Part shown: positions 1,594 to 11,391 of the stretch, in pieces
Numbering within the stretch: the first letter of the stretch is position 1
Layout: every line of letters begins with the position of its first letter
Assembly: GCA_015257485.1 (NCBI GenBank)
Contig: JABZKC010000001.1
Coordinates: forward strand, 5,078-69,077
Origin: Candidatus Nanosynbacter sp.
GTDB lineage: Bacteria; Patescibacteriota; Saccharimonadia; Saccharimonadales; Saccharimonadaceae
DNA length: 64,000 nt
Reading direction: 5' to 3'
The notes under the pieces: model-generated
Databases searched by the model: none
Seen by the model: only the letters and a program-made list of their open reading frames with translations
Told to the model about the DNA's origin: nothing
Position numbers and translations under genes: made by a program

Positions 1594-4500
1594 TTAGCGA
1601 ATTTTTACCACCGTACCGTCTTTTAGACGCCCATCTTCCTGGTTCGCCTCAGATACAGCCTCCATCGGCACGTTTACCACCTCTGGCTCCGCAGCCGCAG
1701 CACTCTTTCCCGCCATCAAATCATCTAGCTCAGCATTAATATCATCCAAGGTGAATTCCGCACGGCCTTCCTTACTAGCCCCTGCGTCAGGCCCCTCAGA
1801 TTCACCCCTTCCAGCCACCGCCTCAGCTATATCACTAGCCGTCCTCTCGGCCTTTTTCTCATTCCCTTCCTCGGCTTTCATTTTCTCCAAAAATTCTGCC
1901 ATCTCTGGACTTCCCGCCTTTGCCTCGCTGGCCGGCACTTTCTTCACCCCTAATGGAATACCCTTTTCGTCTCGATCAAAATTATCTAAACCAAGCGCCG
2001 CATCCATCGCGCCATCCCAAGGCTCATTGCTCGCAAAATTCCCATTTTCAATATTTGCTCGCCCTTCATCGCCATCACTAACCCTCAAGCGATCCTCGAT
2101 CTCCTTTTCCACCTCTTCCCCTGGACGGCCGTATTTCTTCGCTGAATAATCTTTTAGAGCGGCAAAAATATTACGGTCTTCCTTACCTCTTGGCGGCAAC
2201 AATCTCATCGTAAATGGCGCTGATGGCATACCGTGCATCAAAACCGTCGCAATTGCGTGATGGTTTGGTTGCTTATGCAAATCTTCCGCCTTAAAAGTCG
2301 GCGTAAAGACTTTTTCCATCATTTCCGCATCTGTTACGCCCAGACGACCCGCAATAATCGTACCTACGTTACCCAGTACACCTTCACGAATCTTATCTGT
2401 TAGCTGCGTCATGAACTGGTTCGCCACAATCAAATTCAAACGGAACTTACGAGCTTCCGACAAAATCGATTCAAAAGATTCTGTCGAGAAGTTCTGAAAC
2501 TCATCCACGAATAAACAAAAATCCTTACGTTCATGCTCTGGCGTATCTACCCTCGACATCGCCGCCGTCTGGAATTTCATCACGAAAATCATGCCCAGAA
2601 GCTTCGAGTTTAGCTCCCCTAATTTACCCTTAGAGAGATTCACCAGCAGAATTTTCTGTTGATCCATAATTTCGCGAATATTAAAGCCCGATTTAGTCTG
2701 GCCTAACACTCGTTTCATCATCGTATTTTGCTTAAATGGGCTCCATTTTGAAGCAAACCAAGTCACCACTTCACCGGCATCATTCGATTTCTGAGAAGCC
2801 GGAAATTCTTTCGTCCAATAATCAAAGAGGTCGCGATCTGTTACATATTTCAACTTATCTGCCACTAAATCTGGATTGATAAATGGACTCGGAATATCCA
2901 GAAAAGTCGCTCCCCTCGGATCACTCATCAAAAGCAGGGCGGCATTTCTGAACATCTGCTCACCGCGTGGACCAAAAATACCCGTGTGTCCAGGGTCATA
3001 CAGCGAATAGAGCATATTAATCCCCTCTTGCACGATAAAATCTTTCTGTTCCGTAGTGGCAAATTCCAACATATTCATGCCAATTGGAAAATCTGTATCT
3101 GATGGATCGAAGTAAATCACATCATCAATACGATTTTCTGGTACCATCGAAAGCAACTCCTCCGTCACGTCACCGTGCGGATCAATAAAACAGAAGCCCC
3201 TACCTGCCAACATATCTTGATAGGCCAAATTCTTCAAAAGTACCGACTTACCCATACCAGATGCACCGATAATATAAGTATGGCGCCTACGGTCATCTTC
3301 ACCTAGCTTAATCATCTTTGTGTTACCACGATATTCGTTAACACCCAGTTCCAGACCCTCTTCCACCAGTACGGTTGGCGCATCTACCTGTTTCGTCATC
3401 TGTCTCTCTACCCCCGATGATGGAATTGCCGCCTCAGATGGCAAATGAAAAATCGAAGCGAGTTCCTGTGTGTTCAAAATCATCCCCTTTTTCTTGGTTG
3501 GGAAAAAGCGAAAAATATAATTCGTCACCAAAGTATCCATTTTTTTCGCCATATCGTATTTGAAACCGTTCATGGTTGGCGAATCCAACTGCGAAAATGC
3601 CGCCACCACGCCACCAACCAAGGCCTCACTACGTTCATGACTACTAGAATGTGCTACCACACGAATCAAACATTCAAAAACCGGATACTTGGTTTTATTT
3701 TCAATCATTTGGGCTTCATCGAGCTTCGCCTGCGACACTTCCTTCGTCGTTTCCTTACCTTTATCGTATTCATGTAGCTCCGGCACTTCAAATGGTGCAC
3801 GAATAACGTCCATGATTAAATTTAGTACTCGGCCCTGTCCGAAGAATCCGCCACGCGACTTAACTTTTTTACCCTCTCGTAAATTTTTTATAATTTCTTC
3901 AACTTTTTTTCGCCAACCATCCCCCACTGGACGAAACATTAGTTGTAACCCCAGTCCTTCACCTTTTTTCGCTTTCGCAAAGGCATTCAAAATCGCCAGC
4001 TGCGCATCCCATTTCGATTCTGAAAATATCTGGATTGGATAATATTCTTCTTTCTTAAAAATCAGCTCCCCACCCGCCACATTACGGCTATCATCATCCT
4101 CTTTCGCTTCGTCACCGAGCCCTGCATTCGAGAAGATATTTTCCACCTCTGCTTCCTCTAAGCGCGCCGTTGGATAAGAAGATTGAATCGCCTGCTTCAC
4201 AATTTCCGTAGTCACTGCTGGCACCACGGCATAATACTTCACTAAACCGTCGACCACTACCATTTCGAATGAAAAATATTTCTGACCGTATAATTTTGTA
4301 TTAAAACTCTCTTTTTTCAACGTCGAAGCAATGATTGAATACATAATTGTCGACTGCGAAATCGCCTCTTCATTCACATCACGTTCATCTCTTCCGCCAC
4401 CCTGAATATCATCAGTAGCAGGAGGTAAATGAATCAAAAGTGGAATTAATTTTAGTGAACGCTCATATTCCTTCGCCTTACGTTTTTTAGCCAAAATTTT

Positions 4501-4731
4501 CACCCCCACAAAGAGGGCCGCCACTAGAATTAGGATAAAAATTTGTACACCAATTATAATGTTATTCGAGAAAATTTTGGAGAAATCCGCCCCCTGCTTT
4601 GGCGTAAAAATTGAACTATTTTTTTGTTCATTTTGCGCATTTTTTGGGGCGGCACTTGCCGCACCAGAATCCGCCGACGCTCCCGTCGTATTCTTTCGCA
4701 TAATGATATTTTCCACCGGATTTTCGCTCAT
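1594..4731 (-). CDS. Membrane-anchored HerA/VirB4/FtsK-superfamily P-loop ATPase (1045 aa) with an acidic, low-complexity C-terminal tail
   Basis: One predicted TM helix near aa 57-80 (IIIGVQIFILILVAALFVGVKIL). Walker A IIGASGMGKS, Walker B FCLFVDEFQNF, then EARKFRLNLIVANQ (the R-K...TQ motif of HerA/VirB4/TraG-type ATPases). C-terminal about 200 aa is E/D/A/G-rich. Confidence 0.6.
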   Translation of the reverse strand: MSENPVENIIMRKNTTGASADSGAASAAPKNAQNEQKNSSIFTPKQGADFSKIFSNNIIIGVQIFILILVAALFVGVKILAKKRKAKEYERSLKLIPLLIHLPPATDDIQGGGRDERDVNEEAISQSTIMYSIIASTLKKESFNTKLYGQKYFSFEMVVVDGLVKYYAVVPAVTTEIVKQAIQSSYPTARLEEAEVENIFSNAGLGDEAKEDDDSRNVAGGELIFKKEEYYPIQIFSESKWDAQLAILNAFAKAKKGEGLGLQLMFRPVGDGWRKKVEEIIKNLREGKKVKSRGGFFGQGRVLNLIMDVIRAPFEVPELHEYDKGKETTKEVSQAKLDEAQMIENKTKYPVFECLIRVVAHSSSHERSEALVGGVVAAFSQLDSPTMNGFKYDMAKKMDTLVTNYIFRFFPTKKKGMILNTQELASIFHLPSEAAIPSSGVERQMTKQVDAPTVLVEEGLELGVNEYRGNTKMIKLGEDDRRRHTYIIGASGMGKSVLLKNLAYQDMLAGRGFCFIDPHGDVTEELLSMVPENRIDDVIYFDPSDTDFPIGMNMLEFATTEQKDFIVQEGINMLYSLYDPGHTGIFGPRGEQMFRNAALLLMSDPRGATFLDIPSPFINPDLVADKLKYVTDRDLFDYWTKEFPASQKSNDAGEVVTWFASKWSPFKQNTMMKRVLGQTKSGFNIREIMDQQKILLVNLSKGKLGELNSKLLGMIFVMKFQTAAMSRVDTPEHERKDFCLFVDEFQNFSTESFESILSEARKFRLNLIVANQFMTQLTDKIREGVLGNVGTIIAGRLGVTDAEMMEKVFTPTFKAEDLHKQPNHHAIATVLMHGMPSAPFTMRLLPPRGKEDRNIFAALKDYSAKKYGRPGEEVEKEIEDRLRVSDGDEGRANIENGNFASNEPWDGAMDAALGLDNFDRDEKGIPLGVKKVPASEAKAGSPEMAEFLEKMKAEEGNEKKAERTASDIAEAVAGRGESEGPDAGASKEGRAEFTLDDINAELDDLMAGKSAAAAEPEVVNVPMEAVSEANQEDGRLKDGTVVKIR

Positions 4732-4846: not shown

Positions 4847-5638
4847 CTAATTATCTTGTCCGAGTATTCTTCCATATCTGTCGAGCAAAAGTTTCGTGCT
4901 CAGCATTCTTTTTTGTCGATACTGCATGGTCGGACTTTTAATCTTTTTGGTTTTCTCAACTTCTTTCAGGATTTCTTCTTCTAAGCCATCTCTGTCTCGC
5001 GCCTTCGGCAAATCTGTTCCAATCAATTTTCCATCTTCGAAAGTCCGCGTCCCCACCGTTACAATCTTGCCCAAATCACTTTTTGGTACCCCCTCATCAC
5101 TATATTCTTCCCCCCGTTCAACTTCCGCTCGTTCTGTCTCCAGATTTTTTTCTTGTTCAATCTGTGAATTTGCATTTTCAAAGCCTTGTATCTGCTCTGA
5201 ATGAATTTGCATTGAGTTTACCTGTTCAAACTGCCCCTGCCCCGACACACCATTCGTCTGCACCCACTCTGGCACACCACTCGGCTGCATTCCCTCTGAG
5301 ACGCCTCCTATTCGCATCTCCTCCGGAACACCGTTCATTTGCGCCTGCCCCGGCACACTATTCATCTGCGCCTGCATCGCCATCTGGCCCATCGCCATCT
5401 GTCCTCTGTCAAAACCGTTCGCCCCAGGCATTCCCTGAGCTTCAAACATTTGGTTCAGTCTCGCCACAGCTTCATCTTGCGTCAGCCCAGTTGGTACCTG
5501 TTCCGCCCCAAAATCACCCGAAAGCATCTGCCCCATCCCATCCGGTACCTGTTCCACTGAAGAAGAATTTAAGCCAGAAAAATCCTGTCGTTCTCGATCA
5601 TTTACTCCAGAAACCTGCCCAATATTTTTCTGATCCAT
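4847..5638 (-). CDS. Hypothetical Q/M/G-rich low-complexity protein (263 aa)
   Basis: Co-directional with its neighbours and has an acidic, ordinary composition. The antisense ORF 5083..5706 is P/S/H-rich and looks like an artefact. No recognisable domain. Confidence 0.45.
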   Translation of the reverse strand: MDQKNIGQVSGVNDRERQDFSGLNSSSVEQVPDGMGQMLSGDFGAEQVPTGLTQDEAVARLNQMFEAQGMPGANGFDRGQMAMGQMAMQAQMNSVPGQAQMNGVPEEMRIGGVSEGMQPSGVPEWVQTNGVSGQGQFEQVNSMQIHSEQIQGFENANSQIEQEKNLETERAEVERGEEYSDEGVPKSDLGKIVTVGTRTFEDGKLIGTDLPKARDRDGLEEEILKEVEKTKKIKSPTMQYRQKRMLSTKLLLDRYGRILGQDN

Positions 5639-5673
5639 GCCCCTATTTTAGCATAAACACTATGAAAAAAATA

Positions 5674-6048
5674 CTATTTCACCATCTTGGTGAACACAAA
5701 AAATAACAAACCAACAAAAAATGCCGGTAAGAAAATCAAAACCAGCAAATTCGTCACACTTGAAGCCACCAAAATCAACAACATAATCGGGTACATCGCA
5801 ATAATTCCCGCCTTAAAATAGTCCGTCTGTGTAGTTCTGTTTTTTAGAAAAACTACCTTCAAAAACAGGTTCATCACCCAGGTAATAATTCCAAAAACCA
5901 GAACATAAAGCAGCACAAAAGCCAGCATAATCCCTAGCGGGCCGACCATCATTGGTGTAGTAGTGAAGAGCATAACTACCAAAATAACCAAAGAAATTAA
6001 GCTTGAAATTCCGATCAATAGATTAACCATAAGACTATTATAAAGCAA
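5674..6048 (-). CDS. Hypothetical small integral membrane protein (124 aa, about 4 TM)
   Basis: Four hydrophobic segments and no recognisable motif. Confidence 0.45.
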   Translation of the reverse strand: MLYNSLMVNLLIGISSLISLVILVVMLFTTTPMMVGPLGIMLAFVLLYVLVFGIITWVMNLFLKVVFLKNRTTQTDYFKAGIIAMYPIMLLILVASSVTNLLVLIFLPAFFVGLLFFVFTKMVK

Positions 6049-7231
6049 TTTCCTATTCCCTCCCAGAAATATTTCCTAATGCTTCGATTTTCCATAAATT
6101 TATCTAATGTACGATGGAAAATACCATAGTCAAGCGGGTGGTTATCTGGCAAAAACATAACTATAAACCACAACCATCACCGCTTGAAATTGACCGCTCC
6201 ACTTTTAGTGGGGCAAAAGATCAGCCTCAGCTGATACGCCAGAAAATCTGGCTAACGTAGTCTTCGTCACTACATTGATCTTTCTCCTAATTGTTAATGT
6301 GTTGTTTATTTGTATTTTTGTCTTTCGACATTCTTATAGTATCACGGGTGTATATTTTATGCAAGCCTTTTTTGCTTAGATTTTAAGTATAAAATACAAC
6401 AATAATAATCACCTATCTGTTAGATCCCAAATATCTAAAACATTCACTATTGTACAAAATACTACAAAAAAGCCTAAAAATTCTATGTTGTAATTAATAA
6501 CATACCAAAATACAACATAAATCCGATTATTATTCACAAAAATTTCCTTCTAAAATCAAAAAGTAGAAGCTTTATCTTTAATCCTAAAATCTTTTGATTT
6601 TCAAAAAAATTAGACGCTATACTTCATATTGTTTAGAATAAAAAATCCCCACATTTCCCTTTTCCAAATATCGATCAAAAATATATTAGTAAGCATTAAT
6701 TAAGATTTTCAAATACCAATCGAAAAACTAATCCCATTTCATCACAAAAAAACTATAGTGGATAATTTCCGTCTAAAAACCCACCACAAAACTTTATTTA
6801 TAAAAAACGCCTAAATTAGGCAAAATAAAAAAAGAAATCGGTCAAACTGCGAGGAATACCGATTTCTTTTGTAGAGTGTGGAGTTTTTTGGCTATATTGT
6901 TTGTTTTTGGCTTGTGAACAATTTTATTATTCAAAAGCTACCTCTATAATACCGCTTCAAAACGCTAATGTCAACATATTTTTGAATAATTTTTTTACAA
7001 TTTTGCCCTATTTTTTAGTTTTCCACATCTACCCCTGTTAGCTCTGTATACTATTTTTGAACAATTTTAGTTTTACTTGAACACATTTTTTATTATTTTG
7101 AGCTATTTTAAGTCATCCACCCCTGTTGGACTTAATTTTACATTTTTTATTTTCAATCAAAATCCTTTTTCAGTTATTTTTTTATTTAAAAACATAAAAA
7201 ATAGCCTCGAAAAAGGCCATTAAAAATCGAT

Positions 7232-7581
7232 TGGTGGAGCTGCCGGATACTGCCTCCGGGTCCGAAAAATCTTCATAATATCATTCTACATGCATAGTTA
7301 TTTATTTCATCTTGGTTTATATCTATAGCGACAAATAACAAAACTATAGATTACCATGACTGATTTTCGATCCCAGCCTCGTCACTGTCCGGAATCTATT
7401 CTCGTAAATCTAATAATCTAACTACTACGAAAACTTGGAGTTAGACCAGCCTATATTAAATTAGGCAAAAGCAGGTGCATAAAGCACATGCTTGGAAGTA
7501 TTTTCTTCACTTTTTCAATACTTACGGTATCAATCGTCATGCCTGATATCTGTTAATAATCCGTCTAAGCTTTGTCAGCCC
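7232..7581 (-). ncRNA. ssrA: tmRNA (SsrA), about 350 nt
   Basis: Minus-strand 5' end GGGGCTGACAAAGCTTAGACGG (compare E. coli GGGGCUGAUUCUGGAUUCGACGG). 3' end ...CCGGAGGCAGTATCCGGCAGCTCCACCA. Acceptor 5' GGGGCTG pairs with 3' CAGCTCC including a G3-U70 wobble, followed by discriminator A and CCA. Internal candidate tag frame ...KSEENTSKHVLYAPAFA then TAA. The T-loop sequence is atypical (GGCAGTA). Confidence 0.6.
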
Positions 7582-7834
7582 CAACTAATCCAATTATATC
7601 ATATAAAGATCGATTACACTCTATTATTCCCCCAATCTTGCCCTAGTTAGCCACCCCTCGCTCATTCTGCGAAAAAATACTAAGCATAAGCAAGTTATCA
7701 AAAGCATAAGCAAGTTATGATTTAACTTATTTATTTATCTCCTACCTCTTAAATCCCTACTCAAAATTTATTTTTCTCATCACCAAAATCATCATTTTCT
7801 TGGCATTTTTAACAAAACGATTCATTATAAAAAT

Positions 7835-9415
7835 ATGAATGTTAAAGTTTTTACCGCCATCCCCACCGGCTATTCTGGACAACTTATTGAAGTTGAAGGC
7901 ACCACCAATAAAGGTCTCCCGAGTTTTAATCTCGTGGGTATGGGTGATAAAACTATTCTTGAATCTAGAGAACGCGTTCGCAGTGCCATCATGAATTCAG
8001 ATTTCTCTTTTCCAAAGCACAAAATCACTATCAATCTCGCCCCTGCTGATCTTATTAAAAGTGGCTCTTCTCTGGATTTGCCCATCGCTATCAACATTTT
8101 AATTCTCGCTAAACAACTTCGTGAAGAAGATATCAAAGGCCTCTTTTTTACCGGCGAGTTATCCCTTGACGGCAGCTTAAAGCCAGTTAAGGGCATTCTA
8201 AACATTATCGAAACCGCTAAAACACACGGATTCAAACAAATTTTTCTTCCCGCCGCTTCCGCTACCAAGTCTACTCTTATTCAAGACATCGAAATTTACC
8301 CCGTACGAACCCTTAAACAGCTTTTTCTCCACCTCAAACATCAAATTTATATCCCGCCACTTGATGGTTCAAGTCAAATTTCCCCTCCAGGCCTCACATC
8401 GATTTCAGAAAAGAACTCTACTCCTGCCCTCATCTCTTCTCTTAGCTCCTCTTTCTGCGCCCTTGACCAAATCCAGGGTCTCGATTTTGCCAAGCGCGCT
8501 CTTATCCTAGCTATCGCCGGGCATCACAATCTTCTTCTCTCTGGTCCACCAGGTAGTGGTAAAACTTTGCTCGCGAGTGCAGCCAAAGATCTACTTCCGC
8601 CACCTAGCCCCACAGAGCTCATTTCGATTTACAAAATTCATGGTCTCACTACCGAACTTGATCAAATCCCTCAAAAACGCCCCTTTCGTCAGCCCCACCA
8701 CAGTAGTTCCGCCTGCTCCATTATTGGTGGTGGAAGCCCCATAACTCCAGGTGAAATTTCCCTTGCACATCTCGGCATTCTTTTTCTAGATGAATTACCC
8801 GAATTTCCCCGCTCTGTACTTGAGGCTATGCGTCAGCCACTCGAAGACCACCAAATCTCGATTTCTCGCGCCAAAGAACGCGCCACTTTTCCCGCCAACT
8901 TCACACTTTTTGCCACCATGAACCCCTGCCCCTGTGGTTACTATGGTTCGCACATCAAACCCTGCACCTGCACCCCCACTCAAATTCACAATTACACCAA
9001 ACATCTCAGTGGCCCAATTTTTGACCGCATCGACATCAAGCTTCATCTTCCCTATCTCGATCAAAATCTCCTCATCGATCACCTCTCCACTAAATCACCT
9101 CCAGAGAATTCCGCCAAAAATCTCCACTTCTATCAAAATAAAATCTGTCAAATTACCCAACTTCAAGCTGAACGCTACCATTCTCTAGAAAAATTCAACG
9201 GCACCCTCACGTCTGCTGAGATTTCTCAATACATTCACCTAAACTCAACCCTAAAAACCGAATTAAAACGCGCTACAGAAACCTTTAAGCTTTCCTCTCG
9301 CGCCATCATCAAAATTATCAAACTCAGCCGCACTATCGCCGATTATGATAACTCACCAGAAATCAAACTCGAACATCTCAAGGAAGCCATCTGCTTTGCT
9401 ACCTTTTCACCCTGA
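7835..9415 (+). CDS. comM: YifB/ComM family Mg-chelatase-like AAA+ ATPase
   Basis: N-terminal Lon-protease-like domain (GMGDKTILESRERVRSAI), Walker A LLSGPPGSGKTLLASA and a C-terminal ChlI-like region. 526 aa. Confidence 0.85.
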   Translation: MNVKVFTAIPTGYSGQLIEVEGTTNKGLPSFNLVGMGDKTILESRERVRSAIMNSDFSFPKHKITINLAPADLIKSGSSLDLPIAINILILAKQLREEDIKGLFFTGELSLDGSLKPVKGILNIIETAKTHGFKQIFLPAASATKSTLIQDIEIYPVRTLKQLFLHLKHQIYIPPLDGSSQISPPGLTSISEKNSTPALISSLSSSFCALDQIQGLDFAKRALILAIAGHHNLLLSGPPGSGKTLLASAAKDLLPPPSPTELISIYKIHGLTTELDQIPQKRPFRQPHHSSSACSIIGGGSPITPGEISLAHLGILFLDELPEFPRSVLEAMRQPLEDHQISISRAKERATFPANFTLFATMNPCPCGYYGSHIKPCTCTPTQIHNYTKHLSGPIFDRIDIKLHLPYLDQNLLIDHLSTKSPPENSAKNLHFYQNKICQITQLQAERYHSLEKFNGTLTSAEISQYIHLNSTLKTELKRATETFKLSSRAIIKIIKLSRTIADYDNSPEIKLEHLKEAICFATFSP

Positions 9416-10834: not shown

Positions 10835-10856
10835 AGACCCGTAAGGGTCTATTTTT
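10835..10856. terminator. Bidirectional rho-independent terminator shared by the convergent rpmB and rnpB
   Basis: Hairpin AGACCCGTAAGGGTCT followed by TATTTTT on the plus strand, and by ATTTTGTT on the minus strand. Confidence 0.6.
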
Positions 10857-11262
10857 AAGCTATCAGTAAGCCGGGTTTTGTAACTAAAAGGCGCAAATAC
10901 TCTTATCACAAGTAAAACCACAATAAAAGTTTCTTCCCTTTTTAGCCGATAATCATCTATCTAGATATTTTGTTGCCAAAATATTCAAGCGGTAAGCGTG
11001 CATCTTCGAACCAAAGTTTAGTAGCACTCCTTGCAGCCAGTAGGGTTTGCCATCAACCATGTCACCATGGATTGCCGTAAGCTCTTACCTTACACTTTTC
11101 ACCCTTGCCCGAAGGCGGTATTGTCTCTGTGGTACTTTCCCTATTCTTCAATTTTTTAGGCCGAAGCCGTCTAAATTTTCGAACGGTCGCCATTAACGAC
11201 TACTGCGTTCTATGCTGCCCGGACTTTCCTCTTGGCTAAGCCAAGCGATTATCTTTCAAGCT
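10857..11262 (-). ncRNA. rnpB: RNase P RNA (bacterial type), boundaries approximate
   Basis: Reverse complement contains GCTTGGCTTAGCCAAGAGGAAAGTCCGGGCAGCATAGAACGCAG (P3 hairpin plus the universally conserved GGAAAGUCCGGGC P4 strand). It also contains GGGTGAAAAGTGTAAGGTAAGAGCTTAC and the 3' ACAAAACCCGGCTTAC (P4 3' strand, compare ACAGAACCCGGCUUA). The ORF-track entry 11212..11421 overlaps it and is spurious. Confidence 0.75.
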
Positions 11263-11391
11263 CTACATCTATCTTATCACAATTTTTGTGATATTTTTAT
11301 TACTCAATATTTATGGCCAAAGATCCGTTTATCTACAAAGAATATCTTCACTGATTCTCTCCCATTTTCTCTAGTTTACCACAAGCGGCGT

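Follow-up and report, generated by a model that had tools for sequence, protein, structure and literature searches.

What does a 1.8 kb gene-free tract hold in a genome that is almost wholly coding? The tract in question lies in a 64,000-nucleotide (nt) stretch of a Candidatus Nanosynbacter sp. genome (assembly GCA_015257485.1, contig JABZKC010000001.1, positions 5,078 to 69,077; hereafter the window), between a gene for a small membrane protein and comM. The organism is one of the Saccharibacteria (TM7), which are ultrasmall epibionts. Their genomes, of approximately 0.7 Mb, are about 94% coding (PMC10768705), so that a non-coding stretch of 1.8 kb is exceptional, and one that has been kept across the lineage is costly and must therefore be functional. 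A sequence-only reading of the window had recognised a gene for transfer-messenger RNA (tmRNA), ssrA, within the tract, and had regarded the 1.2 kb on its 3' side as a classic place for integrative elements. We find that the tmRNA is correct and ordinary, and that the value of the locus lies in two unannotated conserved RNA genes which fill the rest of it. The tract is most probably a conserved 'RNA island', in which the tmRNA, a small RNA (sRNA) that we term sRNA B and a larger structured RNA that we term RNA A would each be transcribed from the minus strand from a promoter of its own, between two divergent protein genes with leaderless messages.

Conservation and compensatory change in the tract

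Between the open reading frame (ORF) at 5674..6048 on the minus strand, which is that of the membrane protein, and comM at 7835..9415 on the plus strand, the longest ORF on either strand (searched over 6048-7835) encodes 52 amino acids (aa). The earlier statement that about 1.8 kb are free of ORFs of 60 codons or more therefore stands; if the left-hand gene begins at its probable true start, ATG 6030, the gap is 6031-7834. The tract had also been described as strongly AT-rich, with a G+C content of 25-30%. This is true of the spacers (0.24-0.31 at 6300-7200) but not of the structured RNA parts, where values of 0.34-0.38 were found both over 6000-6300 and over the tmRNA, and the flanks measured 0.39-0.58.

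The product of comM, a ComM/YifB-like protein by Pfam identity (7835-9415), is 88-97% identical to proteins of 23 Candidatus Saccharibacteria / Candidatus Nanosynbacter assemblies and 45% identical to the ComM of a more distant genome, Saccharibacteria bacterium UBA4387 (L024). The 24 loci fetched through ComM, 23 of Nanosynbacter type and L024, formed the genome set, and the arrangement of membrane-protein gene, RNA A, sRNA B, tmRNA and comM is kept in all of them. Alignment with blastn shows that the tract matches the Nanosynbacter genomes at 82-97%, the spacer 6517-6800 excepted, and in a per-column profile of 18 loci the segments 6050-6360, 6840-7110, 7200-7590 and 7680-7710 are as conserved as the tmRNA, with variable AT-rich spacers between them. 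When compared with related genomes, 6050-7230 thus proves conserved, in the manner of non-coding RNA (ncRNA), and not variable. Only the spacer 6517-6800 is truly variable: in most Nanosynbacter genomes it is replaced by approximately 400 bp of unrelated ORF-free sequence (for example 4557-4967 of L009), and the window's version is common to L001, L003, L018 and L020 only.

The RNA A segment, 6050-6360, is nearly invariant in the 18 Nanosynbacter loci. Searches with nhmmer, using this conserved block and then a profile of its core (6130-6217), identified homologues in 118 sources, among them L024 and nearly all loci fetched through sRNA B. In the 118 loci the order of RNA A core, sRNA B and tmRNA is fixed, with sRNA B 0.47-1.6 kb from the core and in either orientation; wherever the contig extends to it, the tmRNA follows on the strand of RNA A, with a single locus as the exception.

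The conserved segments also vary in the way expected of folded RNA. In 46 sequences of sRNA B below 90% identity, its two helices are 97.8% paired and 11 of 18 pairs show compensatory changes; none of 500 shuffles reached the covariation score, and in slid controls 29-49% of positions were paired. For the core of RNA A, read in minus orientation in 47 representatives, 99.3% of the cells of 16 pairs are paired and six of the 16 pairs are compensatory; again the score was reached by none of 500 shuffles, and slid controls were 31-56% paired. Coordinates of all features are given in Table 1.

Table 1. Features of the gene-free tract and its borders, in window coordinates.
Feature	Position	Strand	Evidence and remarks
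Putative -10 box TATAAT of small membrane-protein gene	6037..6042	-	ATG 6030..6028, 6 nt downstream; left boundary of tract
RNA A, ~280 nt short form	6052..6331	-	Conservation, covariation; ends predicted, 5' end probably ~6331
RNA A 3' G-rich motif CUGGGAGGGAAUAGG	6066..6052	-	Alignment
Nanosynbacter-specific hairpin between RNA A core and 3' motif	6087..6122	-	Fold prediction, alignment
RNA A universal core	6130..6214	-	7-bp hairpin 6196-6214, GGUCAA 6190-6195, long irregular hairpin 6130-6187
RNA A, two clade-specific hairpins (6220-6235, 6238-6252)	6220..6252	-	Fold prediction, alignment
RNA A clade-specific hairpin GUAGUGACGAAGACUAC	6257..6273	-	Fold prediction; Nanosynbacter-type sequences only
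RNA A 5'-terminal hairpin GUCGAAAGAC, then A/C-rich stretch ACAAAAAUACAAAUAAACAACAC	6320..6329	-	Hairpin in every clade, stem sequence differs
Extended -10 promoter TGATACTAT of RNA A	6336..6344	-	Weak -35 TTGCAT at 6364..6359
AT-rich spacer	6380..6808		Identity 0.42-0.8, against 0.9-0.95 in the RNA genes
TGTTGTA..TACAACA-type palindromes nearest the RNA A promoter	6450-6467, 6484-6519		Repeat listing
Second intrinsic terminator GCCUAAUUUAGGC + U-run, behind sRNA B	6802..6822	-	Not conserved outside the genus
sRNA B, ~115 nt	6826..6941	-	46-sequence alignment, covariation; transcript ends predicted
sRNA B terminator hairpin, loop UUCCUCGCAGUU, then U-run	6834-6866	-	Alignment
sRNA B single-stranded A/C-rich region including AACUCCACACUC	6866-6909	-	Alignment
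sRNA B 5' hairpin	6910-6938	-	Alignment
sRNA B promoter: TTGACA (6974..6969), 17 nt, TATTAT (6951..6946)	6946..6974	-	Score 11/12
Repeat CATCYACCCCTGTT, two copies, upstream of sRNA B promoter	7026-7039, 7114-7127	+	Repeat search
Intrinsic terminator of ssrA	7200..7221	-	Terminator prediction
tmRNA ssrA, one-piece, 351 nt	7232..7582	-	Rfam RF00023
tmRNA T-arm	7243-7259	-	T-loop GGCAGUA
Putative extended -10 promoter TGATATAAT of ssrA	7593..7601	-	~11 nt upstream of mature 5' end; read from sequence
CCACCCCT, third repeat copy, upstream of ssrA	7650-7657	+	Repeat search
Tandem 17-mer AAGCATAAGCAAGTTAT, perfect, 20 nt start to start	7682-7698, 7702-7718	+	Between ssrA and comM
comM promoter TTGGCA-17-CATTAT (CATTAT 7823-7828)	7800..7828	+	ATG 7835, 6 nt downstream; leaderless; right boundary of tract

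sRNA B and the tmRNA gene

The promoter of sRNA B, of the sigma-70 consensus type, is the best promoter-like site of the region, with both hexamers kept in all representatives including L024, and two intrinsic terminators of the minus strand follow 100-140 nt downstream of it. The loop of its terminator hairpin, CCUCGCAG, is invariant. When the window was compared with L024 by blastn, 6845-6984 matched at 78% identity against 68% for the tmRNA, in the opposite orientation relative to ssrA. The terminator stem of L024 has been rebuilt by compensatory changes (AAAUCGGU/ACCGAUUU as against AGGUUCGGC/GCCGAACCU) around the invariant loop CUCGCAGUU.

A search pattern built from the two invariant linker motifs of sRNA B matched at least 120 metagenome contigs and was not found in viral contigs. 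After removal of a few false positives that resembled clustered regularly interspaced short palindromic repeats (CRISPR), 45 representatives below 90% identity remained, all built alike: behind the promoter come a 5' hairpin, then an A/C-rich stretch (CAAAAACAAA ... AACUCCACACUC), which is unpaired, and last a terminator hairpin whose loop is UUYCCUCGCAGUU. The false positives (L033, L053, L082 and L145) are unrelated to the present locus; in them a CRISPR-like direct repeat (..CAACTCCACACGGTRCATTAGGAAC..) happens to include the seed motif of sRNA B. A point against the present reading is that the linker motifs served as the search pattern, so that among the metagenome sequences GCCAAAAACAAA and AACUCCACAC are invariant partly by construction; the motifs are also present in L024 and in the Nanosynbacter genomes, which were fetched through ComM independently of the pattern.

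Three other explanations of these conserved blocks have to be set against the reading as RNA genes. It is very improbable that sRNA B is instead a small-protein gene, a 30-codon ORF at 6842..6934 on the minus strand (MNNKIVHKPKTNNIAKKLHTLQKKSVFLAV). This ORF is intact in all 18 Nanosynbacter loci and would begin 5-7 nt past the predicted transcription start, like the neighbouring leaderless genes, but its integrity is uninformative within the genus because the region is almost invariant there. Across clades the linker carries indels of 1-8 nt, which rule out the coding reading; in L024 a 4-nt insertion breaks the ORF, so that the frame stops after 13 codons. The start codon would furthermore be TTG, and the ORF crosses the terminator hairpin. 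Of the small ORFs of the tract as a whole, most are broken in close relatives, and the two that are intact lie in near-invariant sequence and are not kept outside the genus. The blocks might also do their work at the DNA level, as promoters, operators or signals for replication or uptake, instead of as functional RNAs. Promoter-like and palindromic motifs are indeed abundant and conserved, the motif ACCCCTGT is over-represented, and comM adjoins the tract in a group of bacteria that is naturally competent (PMC10187176). Helix-specific compensatory changes that tolerate G-U pairs are not, however, made by DNA-binding sites, and these are seen at 11 of 18 pairs in sRNA B and at 27 covarying pairs in RNA A; moreover, promoter and terminator bracket sRNA B exactly. 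We consider a role as DNA highly unlikely.

The integrative element proposed in the sequence-only reading fares worst, and it is scarcely credible that 6050-7230 is the remnant or landing site of one, with att-like or element-derived repeats. As in ssrA-linked islands and prophages, the tract is AT-rich and lies directly 3' of ssrA, which is a known integration hot spot; it contains short direct repeats, and the 280-nt segment 6517-6800 has been exchanged in most close relatives. Unlike such elements, it has no integrase-sized ORF (none exceeds 52 aa), and its neighbours are a membrane protein and ComM. There is no att duplication, the 19-nt 3' end of ssrA being present as a single copy in the 64 kb window even when 3 mismatches are allowed, and the 1.2 kb show no similarity to phages or plasmids. 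Mobile elements vary in content, whereas here tract and gene order are conserved through the lineage, including the genome whose ComM is 45% identical, and the conserved blocks bear compensatory changes of the RNA type. Synteny, the single ssrA 3' end and the lack of similarity to mobile DNA all contradict an island.

sRNA B has the generic attributes of an sRNA, namely its own promoter, a rho-independent terminator, a conserved structure and no conserved ORF, and it may act in trans as a base-pairing regulator. Its linker contains the C-rich element CUCCACAC and its terminator loop another, CCUCGCAG; both are predicted to be unpaired, are invariant, and are complementary to ribosome-binding sites of the GGAG/GAGG type. 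By analogy with sRNAs of the LhrC and RoxS type, we tentatively suggest that sRNA B may occlude translation start regions, a proposal that we hold at somewhat short of even. A point against it is that no target emerged from duplex scans and complement searches of the 64 kb window: matching sites are there no more often than chance predicts, and the best of them is inside a coding region. Pairing of the seed CUCCACAC with the G-rich 3' tail of RNA A was also no better than in shuffles (mean z -0.22). The likeness to the LhrC family (RF00616, clan CL00114) and to the RoxS and FsrA types extends to a size of about 110 nt, to the succession of hairpin, unstructured stretch and terminator, and to conserved C-rich motifs that are exposed in the loop of the terminator as well as in the unpaired stretch. 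The motifs of sRNA B are nevertheless CUCCACAC and CCUCGCAG and not UCCC, it is present as a single copy per locus, and it is conserved over a class-level lineage, an unusually wide range among base-pairing sRNAs. LhrC was its only weak match in Rfam, at 28.9 bits for the window and 33.9 bits for L024, where the gathering score is 110. sRNA B is therefore not a member of the LhrC family, and the resemblance is one of proposed mode of action.

The tmRNA had been read from the minus strand at 7581..7232, and a covariance-model search bears this out. The match to Rfam RF00023 at 7232-7582 on that strand reaches 75.1 bits (gathering score 47, E=2.4e-27) and covers model positions 1-374; the tmRNA of L024 scores 74.1 bits. 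Its middle (pseudoknot) region aligns to the model at low posterior probability. The features named in the earlier reading are all present: the GGGGCUGA 5' end, the UUAGACGG block, the G3-U70 pair and the 3' ACCA. The acceptor is of the tRNA-Ala type, with a 7-bp stem in which 5' GGGGCUG pairs with CAGCUCC, a discriminator A and then ACCA. The tag reading frame, 7508..7461, encodes EENTSKHVLYAPAFA* and ends hydrophobically in ..YAPAFA, with its UAA stop inside a helix; it was derived from the Rfam alignment, which also indicates the probable resume codon, together with conservation across clades, the frame being kept in other, distant clades as ..SKHV[LA]Y[AM]PA[FY]A(LA). tmRNA is a ribosome-rescue RNA, and the role of ssrA rests on established knowledge of the family. 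On that basis the one-piece tmRNA of the window would be charged with alanine, as directed by G3-U70, and would add the tag ..SKHVLYAPAFA to stalled proteins.

Apart from its T-loop, this is an ordinary one-piece ssrA with a predicted promoter and terminator of its own. The T-arm does not have the canonical TPsiC-type loop: where other bacteria have UUCRANU, the window has GGCAGUA, as do almost all of 102 related sequences (GGCGGUA and UGCAAUA are rare), and the T-stem covaries. The loop is thus a variant of the lineage and no reason to exclude the gene from the tmRNAs. ARAGORN, which had been named as a check, reported no tmRNA even at strongly lowered thresholds (-ps80), probably because of this deviant T-loop. 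As a practical warning, pipelines based on ARAGORN will report genomes of the Saccharibacteria lineage as lacking ssrA.

RNA A and the apparently leaderless genes beside the tract

RNA A occurs in two forms. In Nanosynbacter and a sister clade (L026-like) it is predicted to be approximately 255-285 nt long, and in other Saccharibacteria 320-400 nt. From promoter to core, the long form comprises the 5' hairpin, the A/C-rich run, a domain UUUGGCG..GGUAAUUUCUAG-CCAUAAAUUACA-CUAGGARUUACC..CGCCAAA, a GNRA-capped hairpin, GAGCGUAGAGCGCG and UAGCACAUU, and a G-rich motif, CUUGUGGGGA, follows 3' of the core. The core itself has GGUCAA(U) between its hairpins, and its long hairpin carries the conserved UUGYGGC...GCCRGAUAA. 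In the short form the promoter, the core, the G-rich 3' motif and the 5' hairpin with its A/C-rich run are all retained, and the middle domains have been swapped for clade-specific hairpins, the ones noticed in the sequence-only reading. Stable hairpins at 6120-6290 had been thought to be possibly another small RNA. They are real and conserved with covariation, but are only part of a minus-strand RNA of about 280 nt; the better-defined RNA gene at 6826-6941 was also missed in the sequence-only reading. A kissing interaction in the long form between AUUAC of the domain-2 loop and GUAAU of the apical core loop is no better than with shuffled AU-rich loops (p ~0.9). At ~6276-6294 on the minus strand, inside RNA A, AGGAGAAAGAUCA-AUG-UAG joins a Shine-Dalgarno-like sequence to a start codon and an immediate stop; it is conserved within Nanosynbacter only.

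The strand of RNA A is decided by the position of the promoter and by comparison of the full-length long form, which favour the minus strand; the core itself does not give a clean answer. The -10 of RNA A is positionally homologous to TTGACT-17-TATAGT, which some 30 of the 47 representative loci carry on that strand at a constant distance; in approximately that number TTGACT-17-TATAGT/TATATT lies 240-280 nt from the core, and conserved sequence runs from the core to this promoter. When the alignment of 36 long-form sequences was folded both ways, the minus strand gave -39.1 kcal/mol, 50 pairs, 27 of them covarying, and 1.9% mismatches, as compared with -28.4 kcal/mol, 30 pairs, 17 covarying and 4% mismatches for the plus strand. 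Several observations are neutral or count against this assignment. The short-form alignment that includes the window is neutral (-38.1 kcal/mol for minus, -36.8 for plus), the folding energies of single sequences favour neither strand (26 of 47 plus, p=0.41), and at two covarying pairs a G-U in plus orientation, in 20 and 13 of the 47 sequences, appears as an A-C mismatch on the minus strand. Pointing to the plus strand too, the hairpin 6196-6214 is perfect there, with G-U, in about 15 of 47 sequences that show a C-A mismatch when read from the minus strand, and the fold of 6050-6370 has a better z-score against shuffles on the plus strand (-4.0 versus -2.4). We nonetheless judge it improbable that the core (6130-6214) is transcribed from the plus strand, whether as an antisense or a divergent small RNA, or that both strands are read. 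None of the 47 representatives has a plus-strand promoter scoring at least 10 of 12 upstream of the core, while the minus-strand promoter is conserved, and other core pairs have G-U in minus orientation only (13 cells and two invariant G-U pairs).

If RNA A is read from the minus strand, it points towards the small membrane-protein gene, and may be a long cis-acting 5' leader (a riboswitch, a protein-binding leader or an attenuator) for that gene and the genes behind it, which encode a 263-aa protein and a VirD4/TraD-like ATPase. Members of one membrane-protein family, with the motif ..TSPxxxGPLGxLxFF.., adjoin RNA A downstream and in the same orientation in approximately 42 of the 47 representatives. 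RNA A shares with riboswitch aptamers a structure that is both complex and conserved, and in the window its G-rich 3' motif lies 9 nt ahead of an in-frame TTG. However, TGnTATAAT followed after 6-7 nt by ATG precedes the membrane-gene homologue in all clades examined, and an extended -10 box so close to the start codon implies that the mRNA of this gene is leaderless and RNA A no part of it. The G-rich motif is no general ribosome-binding site, because a distance of 30-100 nt separates it from the start codon in other clades, and no conserved ribosome-binding site was found near the start codon in the clades examined. Neither alternative pairing that would sequester the start region nor a terminator/antiterminator pair after the core was found, and no riboswitch class of Rfam 15 matched at E<=10. 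The adjacency of RNA A and the membrane gene is weak evidence, because the whole locus is syntenic. What keeps the leader as the main rival is that no intrinsic terminator is recognisable between RNA A and the membrane gene, so that read-through into it is possible, a point that tells against an independent RNA. On balance we think a leader unlikely. A stand-alone RNA that binds protein or serves as a scaffold is the reading to which we give most weight, at close to an even chance: its modular architecture, the GNRA hairpin and the invariant loops would fit the class of large orphan structured RNAs.

Each of the two genes bordering the tract seems to lack a leader: a -10 box, often TGnTATAAT, stands 6-7 nt ahead of its ATG. 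The listed start of the membrane-protein ORF, TTG 6048, is probably wrong because the -10 box lies downstream of it; with ATG 6030 as the true start, the protein would have 118 aa. Leaderless-type sites are at 6028-6042 on the minus strand and at 7823-7837 on the plus strand, and homologous sites were seen in L024, L030, L035, L045, L047, L078 and L127. The small membrane protein (5674-6030, minus strand) has no Pfam or NCBIfam match, and its database relatives are near-identical only; its family is found beside RNA A in all clades. Behind it on the same strand lie the 263-aa protein, without a family match (4847-5638), and further along a 1045-aa coupling ATPase resembling VirD4/TraD/TrwB (1594-4731). 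On the other side of the tract the window also contains a class A bacterial RNase P RNA, at 10852-11264 on the minus strand (a full-length model match of 192.6 bits). Some 50 nt are inserted in it immediately ahead of the 3' strand of the closing helix, and this RNA gene, too, would be blank on an ORF track.

Shared motifs, known RNAs and significance

The AT-rich spacers between the three RNA genes carry the promoters and possible operator motifs. A palindrome of the form TGTTGTA-N(4-9)-TACAACA lies upstream of the promoter of RNA A in 30 of 37 cases, of sRNA B in 27 of 81 and of ssrA in 4 of 77, against a background of 3.8%. Both RNA A and sRNA B begin with a hairpin followed by an (AAN)n-like run, and this common 5' layout, together with the palindrome, hints at common regulation or a common binding protein. 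The palindrome may be a shared operator, which we offer as a lead and not as a result.

The repeats quoted in the sequence-only reading exist, CATCYACCCCTGTT upstream of sRNA B and the 17-mer AAGCATAAGCAAGTTAT between ssrA and comM. The motif ACCCCTGT occurs four times in the window (7031, 7119, 22263 and 35693), against 0.59 expected, and in L024 (5004-5015, 5076-5090 and 5273-5290) and other distant clades it recurs ahead of the promoters of sRNA B and RNA A. The tandem 17-mer AAGCATAAGCAAGTTAT is kept in the Nanosynbacter relatives, while its flanks vary. It overlaps a weak promoter-like site of the minus strand, 7701..7674, which could be a second ssrA promoter.

As far as can be told within the reach of the tools used, RNA A and sRNA B have not been described. 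Rfam 15 (4227 families) was searched at E<=10 with the window from 5600 to 8000, all of L024 and a long-form locus (L045, 1150-1800), and returned the tmRNA, the weak LhrC match and eukaryotic noise only; RNA A had no match. The covariance models of 6S, OLE, ROOL, GOLLD, HEARO and raiA gave no match at E<=10 in the same sequences. Inspection by eye for the signature motifs of signal recognition particle (SRP) RNA, 6S RNA, T-box, fluoride and thiamine pyrophosphate (TPP) elements and group II domain V found them absent. Full-text literature searches yielded no description of Saccharibacteria sRNAs or of this locus, although literature that cannot be searched in this way may hold one. For a complete Nanosynbacter genome, the Prokaryotic Genome Annotation Pipeline (PGAP) lists no more than 2 ncRNAs (PMC8830319), and lysM-TM7, the one TM7-specific motif of the Breaker-lab survey, is a different element (PMC5737381).

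RNA A most resembles the large orphan ncRNAs (the raiA motif, OLE, ROOL, GOLLD and HEARO), in that it is 280-400 nt long and multi-helical, with a GNRA-capped hairpin, invariant loop and junction nucleotides, a promoter of its own and no evident coding or classical cis-regulatory role. It differs from them in being restricted to Saccharibacteria as sampled, in its fixed place beside ssrA and a small membrane-protein gene, and in that one whole domain is absent from the Nanosynbacter and L026 clades. With 6S RNA (RF00013), a widespread housekeeping RNA that is without annotation in Nanosynbacter, it has in common an AT-rich, promoter-like 20-nt loop; it is, however, a series of local hairpins and not a rod with a central bubble, and it lacks a model match. 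It is possible, and nearly as probable as the converse, that RNA A represents a new class of large structured ncRNA specific to Saccharibacteria (320-400 nt, reduced to 280 nt in Nanosynbacter), set in a fixed three-gene RNA locus with sRNA B and ssrA and sharing a palindrome with sRNA B.

RNA A and sRNA B would be the first candidate riboregulators for this lineage of the candidate phyla radiation (CPR). Saccharibacteria are now transformable (PMC10187176), which makes deletions and seed mutations feasible. RNA A is in addition a candidate large structured RNA in a lineage for which almost no regulatory RNA is known. Large structured RNAs are a rare class, whose members have repeatedly shown unusual biochemistry. 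If RNA A is indeed such a class, it would be expected to be a component of a ribonucleoprotein or a global regulator, since these small and densely coding genomes have almost no recognisable regulators, and it may be tied to the epibiotic lifestyle.

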